Positions 1,543-62,673 of a stretch of 64,000 bases of DNA are shown one piece after another. Made by a program: the position numbers and the translations under genes. A model generated the notes under the pieces. It was not told the origin of the DNA. It saw only the letters and a program-made list of their open reading frames with translations, and ran no database searches. This DNA is from an uncultured Candidatus Thioglobus sp. (lineage in GTDB: Bacteria > Pseudomonadota > Gammaproteobacteria > PS1 > Pseudothioglobaceae), in NCBI GenBank assembly GCA_900180385.1, contig FXLX01000004.1:2166-66165 (forward strand). Direction: 5' to 3'. Each line of letters opens with the position of its first letter. Within the stretch, counting starts at the first letter, position 1.

Positions 1543-4500
1543 ATGGCTTATTCATTTACGGAAAAAAAGCGAATTAGAAACAACTTTGGTTCAAGAACAT
1601 CAATTTTGAAAGAACCAGATTTATTAGCAATTCAAATTGACTCTTTTAACGGCTTTATTCAAGCTGGTAGCAAAACTAAAAAAGATGTTGGTTTACAAGC
1701 GGTGTTTCAATCAGTTTTCCCTATTACTGCAGTTAACGGCTATGCCGAAATTGAGTATGTTGATTATGAATTACAAGAGCCTAAGTTTAACGTAGAAGAA
1801 TGTAAGTTACGTGGTGTAACTTTTGCTTCTACATTGCGCGTTAAACTTAACCTAGTATTATTTGATAAAAACGGCTCTACGTTAAAGAAAAAACGTAAAG
1901 TTAAGCAGATCATCGAAGAGGATGTTTATTTAGGTCAGCTACCATTAATGACAACAACAGGTACGTTTGTTATCAATGGTACTGAGCGTGTTGTGGTTTC
2001 TCAATTGCATAGATCGCCTGGTGTTATTTTTGAACACGATAAGGGTAAGACGCACTCTTCAGGAAAGATCTTATTCTCTTCACGTGTTATTCCTTACCGT
2101 GGTTCATGGTTAGATTTTGAGTTTGATCATCACGAGCATTTATTTGTTAGAATTGATCGTCGTCGTAAGCTTCCAGTAACAACATTGCTACGTGCAATGA
2201 GCCTATCAAGCGATGAAATTTTAAGTACATTTTTTGAATCTTCATCAGTTAAGATGAAGGCTAAGTCATGTGATTTAGGTATTAACCCGTCGCGCTTACG
2301 TGGCACGATTGCTGAGTTTGATATTCTTGCTGGCAAAGATGTTATTGTTGAAAAGAATCGTCGTATTACTGCTAAACATATTAAATTGCTTACTGCTGCA
2401 GGTATTAAAGTGATCACTGCACCGTTGGAAACTTTAATTGATAAAGTTATTGCAAATGACATTATTGACACTGAAACTGGTGAGATTTTAGTTGCTACCA
2501 ATACCGTTATTTCCGAAGAAGTTTTAGAATCATTAATTGCCAATAAAATTAAAAAGTTTAATGTGCTATACATTAACGAGTCTGAAACTGGTGCATATAT
2601 CTCAGATACGCTACGTTTAGACGAAACAGAAACTGAAATTCAAGCGCGCATGAGTATTTATCATGTGATGCGCCCTGGTGAGCCAGCTACTGAAGATGCG
2701 GTTAATTTGTTATTTAACAATCTATTCTTTAAGAATGACCGTTATGATCTTTCCAAAGTTGGTCGCATGAAGTTAAATCGTCGTTTGGGTATTGAGTCTG
2801 AAACTGGCGAGCATGTTCTTACTAATGACGACATCTTAAGTGTTATTAAATTATTAATCAATATTAAAGATGGTAATGATTCGGTTGACGATGTAGATAC
2901 GCTGGCTAACCGTCGTGTAAGAGCGATTGGTGAAATGATTGAAAACCAGTTTAGAATTGGTTTGGTCCGTGTTGAAAAAGCAGTTAAAGAAGGTTTAAAC
3001 TTAGCTGAAACTGATGAATTAACCCCGCAAGATTTAATCAACTCTAAGCCTGTTTCAGCTTCAGTTAGAGAATTCTTTGGCTCTTCGCAATTATCACAGT
3101 TTATGGATCAAGTGAATCCTTTGTCTGGTGTCACACATAAACGTCGTATTTCTGCTTTAGGTCCTGGTGGCTTGACGCGTGAGCGTGCTGGTTTTGAAGT
3201 TCGTGATGTTCATCCATCGCATTATGGTCGCCTGTGCCCAATTGAAACACCGGAAGGTCCAAACATTGGACTAATCAACACCTTAGCTGTTTATGCTAAA
3301 ACAAATGAATACGGATTCTTAGAAACCCCTTATCAGATTGTTAAGAAGGGCAAAGTAACAGATGAAATTATTTATGTTTCTGCTATTGATGAAATTGCTC
3401 ATACAATCGCGCAAGCAAATGCGACAGTAAATGACAAAGGTCAGTTACAAGATGATCTAATTTCATGTCGCCATAAGAATGAATTTGTATTAGTTGATTC
3501 TGGCGAAGTAACGCTAATTGATATTGACTCTAAACAAATCTCTTCGGTTGCAGCATCTTTGATTCCATTCTTAGAGCATGATGATGCTAACCGTGCATTG
3601 ATGGGTTCAAACATGCAACGTCAAGCAGTGCCAACACTACGTGCTGAAAAGCCATTAGTTGGAACGGGCATTGAGCGCGTTGTTGCGACAGATTCTCGTG
3701 TTTGTGTCACTGCAAAACACGCAGGTGTTGTTGAGGCTGTTGATGCGTCACGTATTGTAATTCGCGTTGACTCTAAGCAAGCTAAAGCGGGTGAATTAGG
3801 TGTTGATATTTATAATCTAACTAAGTATTCACGTTCAAACCAAAATACTTGTATTAATCAAAAACCATTGGTTAAAGTAGGCGACAAAATTGCTGAAAGT
3901 GATGTTCTTGCTGACGGCCCTTCAACTGACCTTGGTGAGTTAGCATTGGGTCAAAACATGAAGATTGCTTTTATGCCGTGGAATGGTTACAACTTTGAGG
4001 ATTCTATTCTAATCTCAGAGAAAGTTATTAAGGATGATCGTTACACAACGATTCATATTGAAGAATTAACCGCTTATTCTCGTGACACTAAATTAGGTCC
4101 AGAAGAAATTACAGCTGACATTCCGAATGTTAGTGAATCTGCGCTTGCCAAGCTAGATGAAGTGGGTGTGGTTTATGTAGGTGCACGAGTTAAGGGTGGT
4201 GACATTCTTGTTGGTAAAGTAACGCCAAAGAGCGAAACTGTGCTATCTCCAGAAGAGAAGTTATTACGCGCAATCTTTGGTGAAAAGGCTAATAACGTTA
4301 AAGATTCATCATTAAGAATTGGCGCTTCTAAATCAGGTGTAGTCATCGATGTTCAAGTATTTACGCGTGATCGTGTAGAAAAAGATTCAAGAGCGTTAAG
4401 TATTGATGCGGATCGTTTAGAAAAAGTTAAGAAAGATATTGATGATGAGTTCGGCATTATTGATGGTGATATCTTCCGTCGTATTCGATTGAAGCTTTCT

Positions 4501-5625
4501 GGCAACGTGATTACAAAGGCTGTTGGCGATATTAAAGCTGGTGAAAAACTGAATGCCAAGTTGATGAAAAAACTTGACAATAAAGACATTGCTAAAATCA
4601 AAGTTGAAGATGCTGCTATCAATAAAGAAGTTGCAGTATTGGTTAAACAAGCTAAAGCCAAGCAAGTTGAATTTGACAAGTTCTTAGAAGAAGAAAAATC
4701 TAAGATTAGCGAAGGTGCAGAATTACCACCAGGCGTTATGAAGATGGTTAAAGTTTATGTGGCAACGCGTAAAACGCTTCAAGTTGGTGATAAGATGGCT
4801 GGACGTCATGGTAACAAAGGTGTTATCTCACGTGTTTCTCCAGTTGAAGACATGCCTTACTTAGAGGATGGTTCAACGGTTGATGTTGTACTAAATCCAC
4901 TAGGTGTTCCATCTCGAATGAATGTTGGACAGGTGCTTGAGGTTCATTTAGGCTATGCAGCAAAAGGCTTAGGCTATAAGATTGCAGCAATGCTTGATGA
5001 AAAGCGTACTGAAATGGTTGCTGAAATTAGAGCGTTCCTAGACAAGGTATATAACTCATACGGCAAACAAGAAGATTTTAGTGCATTTAGCGACGAAGAG
5101 ATTATTGAATTAGCTAAAAACCTAAGAGAAGGTGTGCCAATGGCAACTCCAGTATTTGATGGTATTAAAGAAGATGATATTAAGTCTCTACTTAAGCTTG
5201 CTGATCTTCCAGAATCAGGCCAAGAACAATTATACGATGGCCGTACAGGTGATGCGTTTGATCGCCCAGTAACGGTTGGTTACATGCACATGCTTAAACT
5301 TAACCACTTGGTTGACGATAAGATGCATGCTCGTTCTACAGGTCCTTACTCATTAGTAACGCAACAACCATTAAGTGGTAAAGCACAGTTTGGTGGACAG
5401 CGATTTGGTGAGATGGAAGTGTGGGCATTAGAAGCTTACGGTGCAGCACATACATTGCGTGAAATGTTAACGGTTAAATCAGATGACGTTGCTGGTCGTG
5501 CAAAGATGTACAAGAGTATTGTTGATGGTAAAAACATCACAGAGTCTGTTATGCCAGAGTCGTTTAATGTACTAATCAAAGAGATTAGATCATTAGGTAT
5601 CGACGTTGAGCTTGAGCAACACTAA
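1543..5625 (+). CDS. rpoB: RNA polymerase beta subunit
   Basis: 1360 aa; [41 protein letters not shown]. Confidence 0.99.
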
Positions 5626-55178: not shown

Positions 55179-55274
55179 CCCATTTTCATTATTTCCGAAA
55201 TTTTACAAATTTCTGTATTTACATGTTGGTTAAAATAAGGCGCAATTGTTACCACCATTAATTCAGTAAATAAT

Positions 55275-56723
55275 ATGTTTGAACAAACCTTTAAAAATAT
55301 TGACGACATTCTGCATAAAGATGCGGGTTGTGGCAGTGAGCTAGACTACGTAGAGCAAACCTCTTGGGTATTGTTTTTAAAATATTTAGATGATCTAGAG
55401 CAAGACAAGCAAACCGCTGCCGAACTTATTGGCAAAGACTATACACCTATTATTGCCAGCAAATTCCAATGGACAACTTGGGCAGCGCCAAAGCTGGATA
55501 ATGGCGATATTGATTACAACGCTTTAACAGGCGATGATCTACTAGATTTTGTAAATAATGAGCTGTTCCCATACCTCGAAAAATTTCAAGTTGATGCGAC
55601 CAGTGCCAACACCATTGAATACAAAATTGGTGAAATTTTCTCAGAGCTAAAAAATCGTATTCAAAGTGGTTACAACTTGCGTGAAGTGCTAATGTTGATT
55701 GATAATCTACGTTTTAGAACGCACAAAGAAAAGCACGAAATGAGCCACCTATATGAAAGCAAAATTAAAAATATGGGCAATGCTGGGCGCAATGGTGGTG
55801 AATACTATACGCCGCGTCCACTAATCAGAACCATTGTTAAAGTGCTTGCACCCAAAATAGGGCAAAGTATTTACGATGGTGCAGTTGGCTCGGCAGGTTT
55901 CTTGGTTGAAGCCTTTGATTATCTTAATCAGCCTAACTTATCTACCGAAGATACTACCATTCTACAAAAAAATACTTTCTACGGCAAAGAGAAAAAATCT
56001 CTCGCTTACATCATTGGCATTATGAATATGATTTTGCATGGGGTAGAAGCACCCAATATTATTCATACCAATACACTGGCTGAAAGCCTTACTGACATTC
56101 AAGAAAAAGACCGCTACAACGTAGTTTTGGCAAACCCACCATTTGGCGGCAAAGAGCGAGCAGAAGTACAACAAAACTTCCAGATTAAAACGGGTGAAAC
56201 GGCTTTTCTATTTTTACAACACTTTATTAAAATCCTTAAAGTCGGTGGCAGAGCGGGCATCGTTATTAAAAATACTTTTCTTAGTAATACTGATAACGCC
56301 TTCGTTGCACTACGCAAAGAGCTATTAAGCAGTTGTAATTTGCACACCGTGTTAGATTTACCAGGTGGTACATTCACAGGTGCAGGGGTAAAAACCATTG
56401 TGCTGTTTTTTGACAAAGGCACAGAAACAAAAAAGACTTGGTTTTATCAGCTCAATCTCAATAGAAATCTGGGCAAAACCAATCCACTTAATGAAAAAGA
56501 TTTGGTAGATTTTGTAACCCTACAAAAAACCTACGCGATAAGTGAAAATTCTTGGTCTATTAACATTAAAGATATTGATCAAGCCACTTTTGATTTATCT
56601 GTCAAAAACCCTAATACACTAAAAGAAGCGCCGTTAAGATCTCCACAAGAAATCCTAGCTGAAATGGAAGCACTAGATGTTGAAACTAAAAATATCTTGG
56701 CCAGTATTAAAAAGCTATTATGA
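55275..56723 (+). CDS. hsdM: Type I R-M m6A methyltransferase
   Basis: GEYYTPR, YDGAVGSAGF, NPPF. Confidence 0.95.
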   Translation: MFEQTFKNIDDILHKDAGCGSELDYVEQTSWVLFLKYLDDLEQDKQTAAELIGKDYTPIIASKFQWTTWAAPKLDNGDIDYNALTGDDLLDFVNNELFPYLEKFQVDATSANTIEYKIGEIFSELKNRIQSGYNLREVLMLIDNLRFRTHKEKHEMSHLYESKIKNMGNAGRNGGEYYTPRPLIRTIVKVLAPKIGQSIYDGAVGSAGFLVEAFDYLNQPNLSTEDTTILQKNTFYGKEKKSLAYIIGIMNMILHGVEAPNIIHTNTLAESLTDIQEKDRYNVVLANPPFGGKERAEVQQNFQIKTGETAFLFLQHFIKILKVGGRAGIVIKNTFLSNTDNAFVALRKELLSSCNLHTVLDLPGGTFTGAGVKTIVLFFDKGTETKKTWFYQLNLNRNLGKTNPLNEKDLVDFVTLQKTYAISENSWSINIKDIDQATFDLSVKNPNTLKEAPLRSPQEILAEMEALDVETKNILASIKKLL

Positions 56724-57712
56724 GCCAACAGCAAGACATCATTATTTATAACACAGCTGATGGCAAAGCCTCAGTTGCACTTTATGCTAAAGATGGCAAT
56801 GCTTGGATGAATCAAGCTCAGCTGGCAGAACTTTTTGACACCTCAAAACAAAACATAAGTCTACACATTGAAAATATATTAAAAGACAATGAGTTAGAGC
56901 AAAATTCAGTTGTCAAGGATTACTTGACAACTGCTGCAGATAACAAAAATTATAGGGTTGCTTTTTATTCCCTAGAGATGATTCTAGCCATCGGTTATAG
57001 AGTTAGAAGCAAAAGAGGAGTACAGTTTAGAATATGGGCAACTAATAATCTAAAAGAGTACATGGTTAAAGGCTTTTTAATGGATGACGAGCGCCTTAAA
57101 ACCCCTGATGGTAGGCCTGATTATTTTGATGAATTATTAAAAAGAATCCGTGATGTACGCGCTTCTGAAAAACGCTTCTATCAAAAAGTAAGAGATTTAC
57201 TCAGCCTTAGTAGTGATTACGACAAAAGCGATAAAGCCACACAAATGTTTTTTGCCGAAACCCAAAACAAACTGCTGTACGCCGTCACCCATAAAACAGC
57301 TGCAGAGTTAGTAATCAGTCGAGCTGATAAAGATAAATCTAATATGGCACTTACCTCTTGGCAAGGCTCTATCGTCCGCAAGCAAGATATTTTTATTGCC
57401 AAAAACTACCTAACTGAATCCGAAATAGACAGTCTTAATCGTTTAGTTGTTATCTTTTTAGAAACCGCAGAACTCAGAGTTAAAAATAGACAAGATATTA
57501 CCTTAAATTTTTGGCAAGAAAATGTTGATCGAATGCTTGAGTTTAACGACCAAAAAATACTCACTACTAAAGGAAAAATCAGTAAAAAGCAAATGCAACA
57601 GCAGGTGGGCGACACTTACGCACTTTTTAATCAAAAAAGAAAAATAGACGAAGCGCAAGCGATTGACTTAAAAGAATTGGAAGCCATTAAAAAAGTGATT
57701 GAAGATGAGTAG
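56720..57712 (+). CDS. RhuM-family (Virulence_RhuM) DNA-binding protein
   Basis: WMNQAQLAELF HTH-like start, YSLEMILAIGYRVRS, IRASEKRFY-like segment, AKNYL. Confidence 0.85.
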   Translation: MSQQQDIIIYNTADGKASVALYAKDGNAWMNQAQLAELFDTSKQNISLHIENILKDNELEQNSVVKDYLTTAADNKNYRVAFYSLEMILAIGYRVRSKRGVQFRIWATNNLKEYMVKGFLMDDERLKTPDGRPDYFDELLKRIRDVRASEKRFYQKVRDLLSLSSDYDKSDKATQMFFAETQNKLLYAVTHKTAAELVISRADKDKSNMALTSWQGSIVRKQDIFIAKNYLTESEIDSLNRLVVIFLETAELRVKNRQDITLNFWQENVDRMLEFNDQKILTTKGKISKKQMQQQVGDTYALFNQKRKIDEAQAIDLKELEAIKKVIEDE

Positions 57713-58853
57713 TATGAAGCAAGGCTGGGAATTGAAAGACTTTGAGGAGTGTATTGACAGGATTCCGAGAACTGCAAAGATACCAAAAAAGCAATTCTTG
57801 GTTGAGGGTAGTTACCCAATAATCTCTCAAGAGGATAGTTATATTAACGGCTATTGGGATAAGCCTGAAGATTTGCTTAAAGTGGATAGACTGCTTGTTA
57901 TTTTTGGCGATCATACAAAAAAATTGAAATATATTGATTTTGATTTTGTACTGGGCGCTGATGGAGTAAAAGCTCTTCTTCCTATAAAGACAATTGATGC
58001 TCGATTCTTCTATTATCAGCTTCAGTCTATTACTTTAAGCGATCTTGGGTATGCAAGACATTATCGGTTACTTAAACAAGAAAAGATTGCAATTCCATCC
58101 CTAGAAGAACAAAAACAAATTGTTGCTAAATTAGATCAAGCGTTTGTAGTGATTGACAAAGCCCGTGAAAATGCCAGCAAGAATCTTGAAAATGCTAAAC
58201 AACTATTCCAAAGCAAACTGAATGAAATTTTTAGCCAAAAAGGTGATGACTGGGTTGAAAAAAAGTTGGGTGAGATAACTACCAAGATTGGAAGTGGCGC
58301 AACACCTAGAGGAGGGCAATCTTCATATAAAGAATCTGGAATACCCTTAATTAGAAGCCTTAATGTTTATGATGATGGTTTTAAAGAAAAAAAAACTAGC
58401 ATTTATAGACGATGCACAAGCTGAAAAACTTAATAATGTGATTATTGAGATGGGTGATGTTCTTCTTAATATTACAGGAGCATCGGTCGCAGGTGTTGTA
58501 TAGCTCCTAATAACTTCTTGCCTGCTAGAGTTAATCAGCATGTATCCATTATTCGTTTAAAGCAAGATACATTGTCTTCAGAATTTTTGCATTATTTATT
58601 AATTTCAAAAGTAAATAAAGATCTACTACTAGGAATAGGAGAGCAAGGGGCAACTAGACAAGCTATCACCAAGGTGCAAATACAAAATTTTGTTGTTTCT
58701 TATCCAAAAAATAATAAAGAGCAAGAGCATTCTGTCAAGTCAATACGCAAGCTAAAGAAACAAACTCAATCTCTTGAATCTAAGTATCAAAAAGAGTTAG
58801 AATCTTTAGAAGAGCTTAAAAAATCAATCTTACAAAAAGCCTTTGCAGGATAG
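57705..58853 (+). pseudogene. hsdS: Type I R-M specificity subunit with +1 and -1 frameshifts
   Basis: TRD1, PSLEEQKQIV central repeat, GSGATPRGG, ARVNQHV, ELKKSILQKAF; +1 in A9 (58387-95) and -1 near 58491. Confidence 0.88.
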
Positions 58854-58887
58854 TTGTATTAACGTATAATTCATTACCAATTTGGTA
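58843..58887 (+). promoter_or_regulatory. Internal sigma70 promoter and palindromic operator upstream of higB
   Basis: TTGCAG-N16-TATAAT (58843-58870) followed by TACCAA-T-TTGGTA (58875-58887). Confidence 0.65.
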
Positions 58888-58901
58888 TACTTTTATATAT
58901 T

Positions 58902-59225
58902 TTGAAAATATTTTTTAACGATAAAAAAATTGCAGAATTGTGCGCTAAGCAGGCATCCAGAAAAAAGTTGGGCATTAAGTGCGCTAAAGTATTAGAACAA
59001 CGATTGCTTGTATTAAATGCGACCAAGGTGTTGGGTGATTGTAAGCAGGGCAACCCTCATCCATTAAAGGGTGATAAAAAAGGTCAATTTGCAATGAACT
59101 TAGAGGGTGGATATCGTTTGGTTTTTACAGCAAAAAATCCTGTACTTACCACTAAAGACGGTGCAACAGACTGGAAAAAGGTGAAAGAAATAACCATTAT
59201 TTTTATTGGAGACTATCATGAGTGA
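58902..59225 (+). CDS. higB: HigB/RelE-family toxin (TTG start)
   Basis: HPLKGDKKGQFAMNLEGGYRLVF and C-terminal GDYH; toxin-first order. Confidence 0.85.
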   Translation: MKIFFNDKKIAELCAKQASRKKLGIKCAKVLEQRLLVLNATKVLGDCKQGNPHPLKGDKKGQFAMNLEGGYRLVFTAKNPVLTTKDGATDWKKVKEITIIFIGDYHE

Positions 59226-60327
59226 TGCAAAATATGAGTTTAAGCCAGATTGGTTGCATCTTGTGCCACCAGGCGAGATAATTTTAGAAAGTATGCAAAA
59301 TATTGGGCTATCTCAAAAACAATTAGCACAGCGTATAGAGTACAGCACTAAGCATATTCATAAGTTGTTAAAAGGTGAGGCGCCGATTAACTCTGATACT
59401 GCTTTAAGACTGGAAAAGGCTTTGGATATGCCGGCGTATCTTTGGCTGAATTTGGAAAACGCCTATCGTGAGGCATTAGCACAAAAGACTGAAACAGAGG
59501 CATTGAGCGCAGAAGCAGATTGGCTTAAAGAATTGCCATTAACTGATATGAAAAAATGGCAATGGGTTAAGAAATTTTCCAATAAGGGCGAGCAAGTCAA
59601 GGAGTGTTTGAAGTTTTACGGTGTGTCTTCAGTTGCTGCTTGGCATGAAGAGCAAAAAAATTACCAAGTTGCTTTTAAGGCTTATGAAAATTTTTCAATG
59701 AATGAGGTGGCTATTCAGACATGGTTAAGGGTGGGTGAAATAAACGCAAGGGAAATCAATTGCCAGCCTTTTGACAAGCAAAAGCTAAAACAAAGTTTGC
59801 CAGCACTAAGGGAATTAACTTTGCTAAATGATCCTGATGATTTCTTGCCAACATTGCAAGAAATATGCGCTCAGTCTGGTGTGGCTATTGTGTTTGCACC
59901 AACGCCAAATAAATGCCCTATGAGTGGAGCAACCAAATGGATTACCTCAAACAAGGCGTTATTATTGCTGAGTTTGAGGCATAAAACCAATGATCATTTA
60001 TGGTTTGCATTTTTTCATGAAATTGGGCATATTCTTAAGCATAAAAAACAATTATTTTTAGAAGGGGCGGGTAAAAAAAGTTTTAAGAATGATGAAAAAT
60101 TAGAGCATGAAGCAAATGAATTTTCCTCAGAGATGTTAATCCCGAAACAACATAATATAGAATTATCCACACTGATAGGTTTGGAAGCTATTAAAAAATT
60201 TGCTAAAAAAATCAATATTGCTCCCGGCATTGTGGTGGGCAGATTGCAACATCAAGGAAGTCTGAATTGGGGGAGCGGCAACAAGCTAAAAGTTAAGTAT
60301 GATTGGGAAAAGCCACAATCTAAATAA
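59218..60327 (+). CDS. HigA-type XRE HTH fused to an ImmA/IrrE (peptidase M78) domain
   Basis: PPGEII...LSQKQLAQRIEYSTKHIHKLLKG HTH; HEIGH zinc motif and EHEANEF. Confidence 0.88.
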   Translation: MSDAKYEFKPDWLHLVPPGEIILESMQNIGLSQKQLAQRIEYSTKHIHKLLKGEAPINSDTALRLEKALDMPAYLWLNLENAYREALAQKTETEALSAEADWLKELPLTDMKKWQWVKKFSNKGEQVKECLKFYGVSSVAAWHEEQKNYQVAFKAYENFSMNEVAIQTWLRVGEINAREINCQPFDKQKLKQSLPALRELTLLNDPDDFLPTLQEICAQSGVAIVFAPTPNKCPMSGATKWITSNKALLLLSLRHKTNDHLWFAFFHEIGHILKHKKQLFLEGAGKKSFKNDEKLEHEANEFSSEMLIPKQHNIELSTLIGLEAIKKFAKKINIAPGIVVGRLQHQGSLNWGSGNKLKVKYDWEKPQSK

Positions 60328-60336
60328 TAAAATATT

Positions 60337-62673
60337 ATGAACGAAGCAGAAACCAGAGCCGAACTAATAGACCCTAAGCTAGTCGCTTGTGGCTGGGGCG
60401 TGGTTAAGGGTTCTAAAATATTGCGTGAGCGTGATGTTTGCAAAATTACTGATGGACGTATACAAGTGGGCGGTGGACGCTCTAAGCCGTTGATTGCTGA
60501 TTATATCTTGATGTATAAAGGTATTAAATTGGCTGTTGTAGAGGCGAAAAGTAGCGATTTGAATGTGGGTGAGGGTGTGGTACAAGCCAAGCTGTACGCT
60601 CAAAAACTTGGGCTGGAAACCACTTACGCTAGCAACGGCAAAGAGATTTATAGTATTTGCCTTAAAACGGGCGCGGAAAGCTTGGTAGAAGATTTTCTTA
60701 GCCCTGATGAACTTTGGGATAAAACTTTCTCTGACCAAAACCATTGGCGCGAGCTGTTTGCTACTATTGCCTTTGAGGATAAATCAGGCACATGGCAACC
60801 ACGTTATTATCAAGAAATAGCTATTAATAAGGCGCTTGAAGCCATTGCTCAGAATAAAGACAGAATATTACTTACCCTTGCCACAGGCACAGGCAAAACA
60901 GCAATTGCTTTTCAAATAGCATGGAAGTTGTTTCATACACGCTGGACGCTTAAGCGTGATGGCAAAAGACGACCAAGAATACTATTTTTAGCAGATAGAA
61001 ATATTTTGGCCAATCAAGCTTATAACTCATTTTCAGCCTTTCCTGATGACGCGATGGTACGCATCAAGCCTTCGGAGATTAAGAAAAAAGGCAAAGTACC
61101 AACCAATGGCAGTATCTTTTTTACGATATTTCAATCATTCATGTCTGGCACGAATGAAGAGGGTGAGTCAGAACCAAATTTTGGGCAATATCCAAAAGAC
61201 TATTTTGATTTTATTATCATTGATGAGTGCCATCGAGGTGGTGCAAATGATGAGGGTAACTGGCGATCAATACTAGATTATTTTTCACCTGCAGTGCAAC
61301 TGGGCTTAACTGCCACACCAAAGCGAAAAGACAATGTAGATACCTATGCTTATTTTGGCGAGCCGATTTATGTGTACTCTTTGAAAGACGGTATTAATGA
61401 TGGATTTTTAACACCGTTTAAAGTTAAGCGCATTCAAACTACCTTGGATGATTATATTTACACCAATGATGACGCTGTTGTTGAAGGAGAAATTGAGCAA
61501 GGCAAGATTTACGAAGAGGAGGATTTTAATAAAATTATTGAAATTAAAGCCAGAGAAGCTGAACGCGTTAAGATTTTTATGGATGATGCGAACAAAAATG
61601 ATAAGACCATTATTTTTTGTGCAACTCAAGTCCATGCTGCCATGGTGCGTGATTTGGTTAATCAATACAAAAAGAATAAAGATCCAAATTATTGTGTACG
61701 CGTAACGGCGAATGACGGCACTATTGGTGAAATATTTTTAGCGCAGTTTCAAGATAATGAGAAACTCATCCCTACCGTGCTTACAACCTCACAAAAGCTG
61801 TTAACTGGCGTGGATGCGAGAAATATTCGCAATATTGTGCTGATGCGCCCTGTGAAGCAAATTATTGAATTTAAGCAAATTGTTGGACGTGGCACAAGGC
61901 TGTTTGATGGCAAAGAATTTTTTACAATTTATGATTTTGTAGATGCTTATCAGCGATTTTCTGATCCTGAGTGGGATGGTGAACCTGTTAAAGATGAGGG
62001 TAATGTTTATAATCCTCCTGAGCCAGAGGATGATTCAGGCGTAAGAGAAGAAGATGAGGATTATAAGCTGAAATCTAAGCAGCAAAAAATCAAGATAAAG
62101 CTTAAAAATGGTAAAGAGCTAGAAATACAGCACATGATATCAACCTCGTTTTGGAATGCAGATGGTAAGCCAATTTCTGCAGAGGAGTTTTTGAATAATT
62201 TATTTGGTGAGCTGCCTAACTTCTTTAAAAATGAAGCAGAATTGCGAAAACTATGGAGTAATCCAATCACCAGAAAAACTTTACTGAAAAAGCTTGATGA
62301 TGCCGGATTTGGTAAAGAGGAATTGACCACATTGCAAAAGCTAATTAACGCCGAAAATAGTGATTTATTTGATGTGCTTGAATATGTGTTTAACAGCGAT
62401 ATAAAGCCAATCACTAGAAAAGATAGAGTGGCAATGGCAAAATCTACAATCTTTGCGTTACTTGATGATAAACAGCAAGAGTTTATTGATTTTGTATTAA
62501 AGCAATATATTAAAACAGGCGTTGGTGAGCTGGATCAAGAAAAATTACCAATTTTATTAACCAATAAATATCAATCTCTAGAAGATGCTAAAGAAGTATT
62601 GGGTGATGTAAAAAATATCAGCTCATTATTTATTGAGTTTCAACAATATTTATACGAACAAAAAGCGGCCTAG
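60337..62673 (+). CDS. hsdR: Type I R-M restriction subunit (EcoAI/EcoEI-like)
   Basis: VVEAK nuclease motif, ATGTGKT, DECH, GLTATP, GRGTR, C-terminal helical domain. Confidence 0.94.
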   Translation: MNEAETRAELIDPKLVACGWGVVKGSKILRERDVCKITDGRIQVGGGRSKPLIADYILMYKGIKLAVVEAKSSDLNVGEGVVQAKLYAQKLGLETTYASNGKEIYSICLKTGAESLVEDFLSPDELWDKTFSDQNHWRELFATIAFEDKSGTWQPRYYQEIAINKALEAIAQNKDRILLTLATGTGKTAIAFQIAWKLFHTRWTLKRDGKRRPRILFLADRNILANQAYNSFSAFPDDAMVRIKPSEIKKKGKVPTNGSIFFTIFQSFMSGTNEEGESEPNFGQYPKDYFDFIIIDECHRGGANDEGNWRSILDYFSPAVQLGLTATPKRKDNVDTYAYFGEPIYVYSLKDGINDGFLTPFKVKRIQTTLDDYIYTNDDAVVEGEIEQGKIYEEEDFNKIIEIKAREAERVKIFMDDANKNDKTIIFCATQVHAAMVRDLVNQYKKNKDPNYCVRVTANDGTIGEIFLAQFQDNEKLIPTVLTTSQKLLTGVDARNIRNIVLMRPVKQIIEFKQIVGRGTRLFDGKEFFTIYDFVDAYQRFSDPEWDGEPVKDEGNVYNPPEPEDDSGVREEDEDYKLKSKQQKIKIKLKNGKELEIQHMISTSFWNADGKPISAEEFLNNLFGELPNFFKNEAELRKLWSNPITRKTLLKKLDDAGFGKEELTTLQKLINAENSDLFDVLEYVFNSDIKPITRKDRVAMAKSTIFALLDDKQQEFIDFVLKQYIKTGVGELDQEKLPILLTNKYQSLEDAKEVLGDVKNISSLFIEFQQYLYEQKAA

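Follow-up and report, generated by a model that had tools for sequence, protein, structure and literature searches.

A PD-lambda-2-like HigB and HigA–peptidase pair as an exchangeable cassette between hsdS and hsdR of a type IB restriction-modification operon

In the CapH/CapP and ImmR/ImmA pairs a helix-turn-helix (HTH) repressor is cleaved by an M78 peptidase on DNA damage, and the C proteins of type II restriction-modification (R-M) systems each serve their own R gene and are conserved alongside it. We analysed a locus with features of both, in a 64,000-nucleotide stretch (hereafter the window; contig FXLX01000004.1) of an uncultured Candidatus Thioglobus sp., where a HigB-like gene and a gene for a HigA-type HTH–M78 peptidase fusion separate hsdS from hsdR in a type I R-M operon. 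Pairs of this layout, a RelE-family toxin gene beside an Xre-HTH/Zn-peptidase fusion, were predicted by Makarova, Wolf & Koonin in 2009 as a RelE/PIN plus Xre–COG2856 ‘three-component’ toxin–antitoxin (TA) system, with an explicit LexA-like autoprotease analogy (PMC2701414); function was predicted only, and the operator and R-M embedding that we report are not described there. One member of this module family is a validated anti-phage system. This is PD-lambda-2, a three-gene abortive-infection system of E. coli comprising a HigB-like protein A, a HigA-HTH/peptidase fusion B and a P4-antitoxin-like protein C, in which B alone is toxic, A neutralises B and C is required for defence (Vassallo et al. 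2022, PMC9519451). Within type I systems, the enteropathogenic E. coli RRDM island holds the TA system DarTG2 between hsdS and hsdR, and the small DNA-binding repressor RptR controls type I transcription from a palindrome overlapping the −10 element (Zhang et al. 2025, PMC12255303). The architecture, the embedding in type I systems and type I transcriptional repressors are all already described, and current views are not overturned here; what the locus adds is modest, an operator consensus that holds across the family and a clear case from nature of cassettes being exchanged at the hsdS–hsdR junction.

The pair is a swappable defence cassette in the hsdS–hsdR slot of a type IB operon, not a dedicated regulator, as concluded from mosaic breaks in sequence identity, other cassettes in the same slot and the distribution of the family across 80 loci. 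Against relatives with 93–96% identical HsdR, nucleotide identity is 88–94% over hsdM–rhuM, the conserved parts of hsdS and hsdR; for the loci L082, L087 and L088, whose hsdM is 88–90% identical, it breaks exactly at 58844–58855 and again at 60334–60337. Relatives with 79–96% identical HsdR hold other cassettes in this slot: a diverged version of the pair, 55% identical, accompanied by a 168-aa gene and followed by hsdR from the very next base after the stop (L082–L086); a Lamassu-like set (373 aa, MC3 and LmuB_C; L087); a Bro-N gene, in a chromosomal neighbourhood shared with the window (L088); and an MNT/HepT, 711-aa, Bro-N, 337-aa and Fic gene series (L092). Contigs from public sequencing runs of the same kind of sample carry a joint 58844→60338 that skips the pair, and the depth over the pair compared with hsdR is 9 versus ~240 in run X1 and 221 versus 532 in run X3. 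DarTG2 shares with the window pair the placement of a TA system in the hsdS–hsdR slot of a type I operon (PMC12255303). In natural populations of one lineage, the type IB hsdS–hsdR junction behaves as a slot for unrelated defence cassettes, exchanged by recombination between the conserved 3′ end of hsdS and 5′ end of hsdR; the resident cassette is the immediate transcriptional context of hsdR and could thereby make restriction levels strain-specific. Loose contig ends in X1, X3 and X5 point to one more cassette, starting MSNNFE…, for which a search among the fetched loci gave no match.

The operon runs hsdM, a RhuM-family gene, hsdS, the higB-like/higA-M78 pair and hsdR (Table 1). Its assignment to type IB (EcoAI family) comes from HsdR, which matches the EcoAI/FtnUII equivalog NF046051 at 784.9 bits (cut-off 550) over model positions 1–768 of 768, with hsdM and hsdS recognized by Pfam. 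We rejected a truncated hsdR, the 778 aa found being full length for the EcoAI family.

For the distribution of the family, one genome per species was scanned, giving 573 relatives of the fusion, and 80 loci were fetched; annotation of Hsd proteins with phmmer and iterated hidden Markov models (HMMs) is insensitive, and counts of R-M-embedded loci are lower bounds. A HigB-like open reading frame (ORF) lies directly upstream of the fusion in 70 of the 80. At least 11/80 loci are embedded in type I systems (at least two Hsd components within five genes); the pair stands directly before hsdR in two (L028 and L044), besides the window, and before hsdS–hsdR in four (L037, L042, L066 and L080). No Hsd-like gene occurs within five genes in 53/81 loci (the 80 genome loci plus the window), and the downstream gene is convergent in 29/75. 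Downstream on the same strand, R-M genes are frequent (type III Mod, HsdS, HsdM and HsdR), and the upstream side is similar (N6_Mtase, UvrD/PDDEXK, HsdS, ResIII and SIR2), with no clear bias of R-M genes towards the downstream side of the module and both sides rich in defence genes. R-M loci and defence islands often harbour the module, which lacks the directional preference that would mark an upstream regulator. The family is also found on 37 plasmids. An hsdS gene follows the pair on the Microscilla plasmid pSD15, which is an example given in the 2009 prediction and carries a member of the window pair's family (PMC2701414). In some loci a further HTH/M78-like gene, only distantly related, lies downstream of the pair (L027 9386–10543, L052 9186–9608 and L057 3811–5010).

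The first-pass annotation's description of the pair as HigB-like and HigA-HTH plus M78 (ImmA/IrrE-type) proteins with a promoter of their own is supported. The HigB-like protein is classed, by its sequence, as a distant HigB relative and not as a formal Pfam member: it scores 18.6 bits (E = 2.7e-3) against HigB-like_toxin (PF05015), short of the gathering cut-off of 27. A profile of 45 homologues matches HigB from Proteus vulgaris (4mct_B) at E = 1.2e-4, and the Pfam matches at E ≤ 0.01 among these 45 are 11 HigB-like and 8 YoeB. The catalytic residues of P. vulgaris HigB (His54, Arg73, Asp90, Tyr91 and His92; PMC5027501) are kept as H53, R72, D104, Y105 and H106. The first two align with their counterparts in an HMM alignment and the D104-Y105-H106 run was paired with Asp90-Tyr91-His92 by inspection only; across the homologue alignment, D104 and H106 are invariant, and H53, R72 and Y105 nearly so. 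The TTG start at 58902 aligns with the conserved N terminus of 70 homologues and has no evident Shine-Dalgarno sequence, a combination that suggests deliberately weak translation of the HigB-like protein. The leader …TATATTTTG (window 58888–58904) is conserved in the closest relatives, including the L001 and L082 equivalents; TTG or GTG starts occur in 14/66 HigB-like homologues, and the fusion gene has ATG with GGAG.

The true start of the fusion is the ATG at 59218, with GGAG 6 nt upstream, and its overlap with the higB-like ORF, stated in the first-pass annotation, can be read directly from the sequence as 8 nt (ATGAGTGA). Residues 16–83 match the HigA family TIGR02607 (56.2 bits, cut-off 47.7), and in a profile of 37 homologues the first ~85 residues match the HigA structures 3cec, 2icp and 4mcx at E values of 1e-10 to 1e-12. 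The C-terminal part matches Pfam Peptidase_M78 (35.3 bits, cut-off 22), with an HExxH motif (HEIGH, residues 267–271) and a downstream Glu; all 37 homologues keep H267, E268 and H271, nearly all keep E296, and the peptidase domain is probably active. An AlphaFold (AF2) model of the fusion (pLDDT 87) resembles HigA structures at its N terminus (TMt 0.7–0.8) and Thauera CapP (7t5t) at its C terminus, with a distant match to C.BclI. Relative to canonical HigBA (P. vulgaris Rts1, E. coli and P. aeruginosa), the pair shares the toxin-first order, the HigA-type HTH and, presumably, the palindrome-autoregulated promoter, together with the HigB catalytic residues; it differs in a HigB-like protein too divergent for the Pfam cut-off and in an antitoxin ~280 residues longer, which adds a helical middle domain and the M78 peptidase. 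Just before the peptidase strands, residues 228–241 (window 59899–59940) carry the segment P-x-x-x-x-C-P-x-S-G-A-T-x-W, with C233, P234, G237, A238 and W241 invariant; a comparison with the regulatory elements of CapP may be worthwhile.

The pair resembles PD-lambda-2 in its gene order, with a HigB-like gene first and a HigA-HTH/peptidase fusion second, and the fusion is recognized by the PADLOC model PD-Lambda-2_B at 1.3e-35 (protein residues 6–347, model positions 48–377 of 402); its capP match is much weaker (5e-12). The window pair differs in lying inside a type I R-M operon and in consisting of the A/B core only, and we class it as PD-lambda-2-like, not as a PD-lambda-2 member. This likeness touches the role of each partner. 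The first-pass annotation took HigB as toxin and HigA as antitoxin; the gene pair and the kept catalytic residues stand, and the roles are weakened and may be reversed, because in PD-lambda-2, the only tested relative, the fusion is toxic and the HigB-like protein neutralises it (PMC9519451). Streptococcal COG2856 proteins are not toxic (PMC4257102). Either partner could be the toxin: the HigB-like protein keeps its catalytic residues, and the fusion would, by analogy, be the toxic one.

Upstream of the pair, direct reading gives TTGCAG at 58843–58848, a 16-nt spacer and TATAAT, which the promoter scanner reads as TTTGCA-17-TATAAT with 10/12 matches; the −35 element overlaps the final hsdS codons, and the perfect palindrome TACCAA-T-TTGGTA begins 5 nt past the −10. 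Both elements had been noticed in the first-pass annotation and are present as described. By itself the palindrome is not significant: TACC-N5-GGTA has one copy in the window against 0.31 expected, and 28/100 shuffles contain at least one. Its significance comes from conservation across homologous loci and not from window statistics. Aligned upstream regions of higB homologues give the family consensus TTTACC-N5-GGTAAA, found with up to two mismatches in 57/66 complete higB upstream regions compared with 0.46% of controls (5,000 random 130-nt windows drawn from the same homologous loci). Three promoter architectures occur, with the operator shortly past the −10 (the arrangement in the window), in the spacer between the −35 and −10 elements, or across the −10, and it overlaps the core promoter in every motif-aligned locus; the window-like arrangement recurs in L001, L004, L005, L011 and L082. 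L082 keeps the palindrome TACCAATTTGGTA and a TTGCAC-N17-TATAAT promoter although its proteins are only 55% identical to those of the window. The proposal in the first-pass annotation that the palindrome is an operator gains from this conservation and from its overlap with the promoter. Conservation in 57/66 loci, together with the invariable overlap with the core promoter, gives strong comparative support to autoregulation by the HigA-type HTH, the putative operator-binding domain. TTTACC-N5-GGTAAA provides a testable operator consensus for a large HigB-like/HTH-peptidase family (more than 4,000 relatives in a protein search).

Two further observations concern operator-like sites. L015, L033, L036 and L039 have two copies, ~80 and ~40 nt upstream of higB, the distal one overlapping TATAAT. 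A candidate second operator at the hsdM promoter (55218–55234, TTTACATGTTGGTTAAA) has two mismatches and lacks the conserved CC/GG core; ten sites with two mismatches to the consensus occur in the window, and we rejected this one as probably a chance match.

We propose that the 58.84–60.33 kb segment would act as a self-contained two-gene module made of a HigB-like RelE-fold protein and a HigA-HTH/M78 fusion. The HTH domain of the fusion, alone or with the HigB-like protein, would bind the operator aTTACCaatttGGTAta, and because this overlaps the predicted transcription start, binding would repress the cassette promoter. The anatomy suggests that hsdR receives transcripts both from this promoter and by read-through from hsdM, and that removal of the repressor by any event would also raise hsdR mRNA. 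hsdR starts 9 nt past the higA-M78 stop, as the first-pass annotation saw, and scans of the + strand found no terminator-like site between the promoter and the end of hsdR (58843–62673) and no promoter-like site in 58930–61508. So short a gap, with neither a terminator nor a closer promoter-like site, makes it likely that hsdR shares a transcript with the pair. Of the earlier idea that hsdR is under the TA promoter, likely co-transcription survives and dedicated control of restriction does not: coupling to hsdR is best read as a side effect of where the cassette landed and not as evolved C-protein-like control. The reading that we favour, an autoregulated A/B-core PD-lambda-2-type module that serves as an interchangeable cassette and whose coupling to hsdR is a consequence of its insertion site, has in our estimate a probability of roughly 0.7.

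Several observations weigh against this reading. The PADLOC model PD-Lambda-2_A has no match at E ≤ 10 to the window HigB-like protein or to two homologous HigB-like proteins, which leaves a generally HigB-like character as the only feature in common with component A. No C-like gene stands next to the pair, hsdR being directly downstream in the window, and PD-Lambda-2_C is absent from the 25 commonest families among 40 downstream neighbours, which hold R-M components instead. Because the A model fails and the third component is absent, PD-lambda-2 function is not simply transferable to the pair. The promoter match by itself is at chance level, with 30 promoter-like sites found in the region against 29.5 expected from shuffles. 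In the small public transcriptome X15, the only RNA run, near-identical contigs cover 55638–55816, 56531–56681, 59558–59737, 60733–60909 and 61274–61428; these fall on hsdM, higA-M78 and hsdR, and none of these short contigs crosses a gene junction. They carry no strand; the operon appears to be expressed in nature, with DNA carry-over a possible source of the contigs. Finally, hsdR lies downstream on the same strand in most R-M-embedded loci, which keeps a functional link of the module with restriction conceivable.

The first-pass annotation proposed that the HigA-ImmA antitoxin and repressor cleaves itself on a stress or phage signal, frees HigB and induces hsdR, as an evolved control like that of C proteins or CapH/CapP. 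In this model's favour, the operator overlaps a promoter directly upstream of hsdR with no terminator between, the peptidase motif is invariant, and the C-terminal domain resembles CapP, by fold as well as by its PADLOC match, in a protein that combines an HTH repressor with a peptidase. hsdR or hsdS follows the module tightly or overlaps it in eight R-M-embedded genome loci and in L082, and the genes met most often downstream on the same strand are type III Mod and type I genes. The module shares with C proteins an HTH gene immediately upstream of the restriction gene and a palindromic operator at its own promoter. We nevertheless judge it unlikely. A C-protein-like regulator is conserved with its restriction gene and sits immediately upstream of it, and this holds only for the window, L028 and L044; most loci have no Hsd-like gene close by, the convergent downstream genes show that the family, unlike CapH/CapP, is not generally an upstream operon regulator, and upstream neighbours are about as defence-rich as downstream ones. 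Sibling operons work with unrelated cassettes in the slot, no second operator is present at the hsdM promoter, and the fusion is the toxic partner in the PD-lambda-2 account. The combination differs from CapH/CapP also in having HTH and peptidase in one chain, paired with a HigB-like protein. A broader form, in which the pair is a fused CapH/CapP-type sensor-repressor repeatedly placed before hsdR, hsdS–hsdR or type III mod-res, is no less doubtful. If it held, restriction would be boosted transcriptionally when phage infection or DNA damage triggers the peptidase, in an inducible-restriction circuit shared across phyla and recognizable by TTTACC-N5-GGTAAA. The self-cleavage idea is not new and goes back to the 2009 prediction (PMC2701414). 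The first-pass annotation called such control not typical of type I systems; transcriptional control of these systems and an hsdS–hsdR TA have precedent in RptR and DarTG2 (PMC12255303). RptR, a stand-alone protein of 9 kDa at the start of its operon, binds TAGCTA repeats and controls the whole island (PMC12255303). In the window, by contrast, the candidate repressor belongs to the embedded TA itself, and its operator lies within the operon, immediately before hsdR.

A second alternative, quite unlikely in our judgement, makes the pair a guard in the manner of PrrC, an abortive-infection back-up that the intact R-M complex, or else normal host physiology, restrains and that fires when a phage disables restriction. 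Across phyla, the module does recur within type I and next to type III R-M genes, abortive infection is the mode of action of PD-lambda-2 (PMC9519451), and other abortive-infection or TA cassettes (DarTG2, Fic, MNT/HEPN and Lamassu-like) occupy the same kind of slot. Against a guard, most family members are not beside R-M genes, and PD-lambda-2 works in E. coli as a cloned operon, with no partner R-M system mentioned in the part of the report that we drew on (PMC9519451).

Less probable still is a plain addiction module, by which the pair would only stabilise the R-M island through post-segregational killing, with no role in defence or regulation. The layout is that of a classical TA (the toxin first and its gene overlapping the next, with an autoregulated promoter and, for the HigB-like gene, a weak TTG start lacking a Shine-Dalgarno), and the plasmid-borne members fit it. 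Effective stabilisation is not suggested, because close strains differ greatly in what the slot holds, and in some populations, such as that of X1, the variant with the pair is in the minority. The tested relative PD-lambda-2 is an anti-phage system (PMC9519451). The first-pass annotation had also invoked addiction to explain why the island persists with a damaged hsdS, a claim that fails. The window hsdS is broken by two indels that lie 103 nt from each other: a poly-A run at 58387 is one A too long, and one A is lacking after 58490. Neither occurs in contigs of X1, X3 and X5, which have the intact form; reverting both restores an uninterrupted 384-aa HsdS. An error of assembly or a defect of this strain, with a frameshift in a homopolymer tract, could account for the break. 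With hsdS intact elsewhere, there is no ground for invoking addiction as what keeps a decaying island in place.

That promoter and palindrome are chance matches in AT-rich DNA, as their frequencies in the window alone might allow, is effectively refuted by comparative data: homologous loci of several phyla have the motif in the same position, and the L082 palindrome is identical despite the divergence of the proteins.

Table 1. Features of the hsdM–hsdR region (window coordinates).
Feature	Coordinates	Strand	Assignment and remarks
hsdM	55275..56723	+	Type I methyltransferase, first operon gene; Pfam N6_Mtase 2e-60 and HsdM_N
rhuM-family gene	56720..57712	+	Fills the hsdM–hsdS slot; Pfam Virulence_RhuM 7e-106; PADLOC PDC-S05 1.9e-141
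hsdS	57699..58853	+	Two ORFs in the window, 57699–58424 and 58518–58853; Methylase_S matches on both
Cassette promoter, sigma-70-like (predicted)	58842..58870	+	−35 TTTGCA/TTGCAG, −10 TATAAT 58865–58870; 10/12 matches
Operator aTTACCaatttGGTAta (putative)	58873..58889	.	Perfect palindrome inside at 58875–58887; family-wide conservation
higB-like gene (RelE superfamily)	58902..59225	+	107 aa; TTG start
higA-type HTH + M78 (ImmA/IrrE/CapP-like) metallopeptidase fusion	59218..60327	+	369 aa
hsdR, type IB (EcoAI/FtnUII family)	60337..62673	+	Full length; NF046051 match

PDC-S05, matched by the rhuM-family gene, is a PADLOC candidate defence family. The hsdM–hsdS junction is a second slot: where the window, L082 and L087 have the RhuM-family gene, L088 has a HEPN-like/MNT pair (4204–4943).

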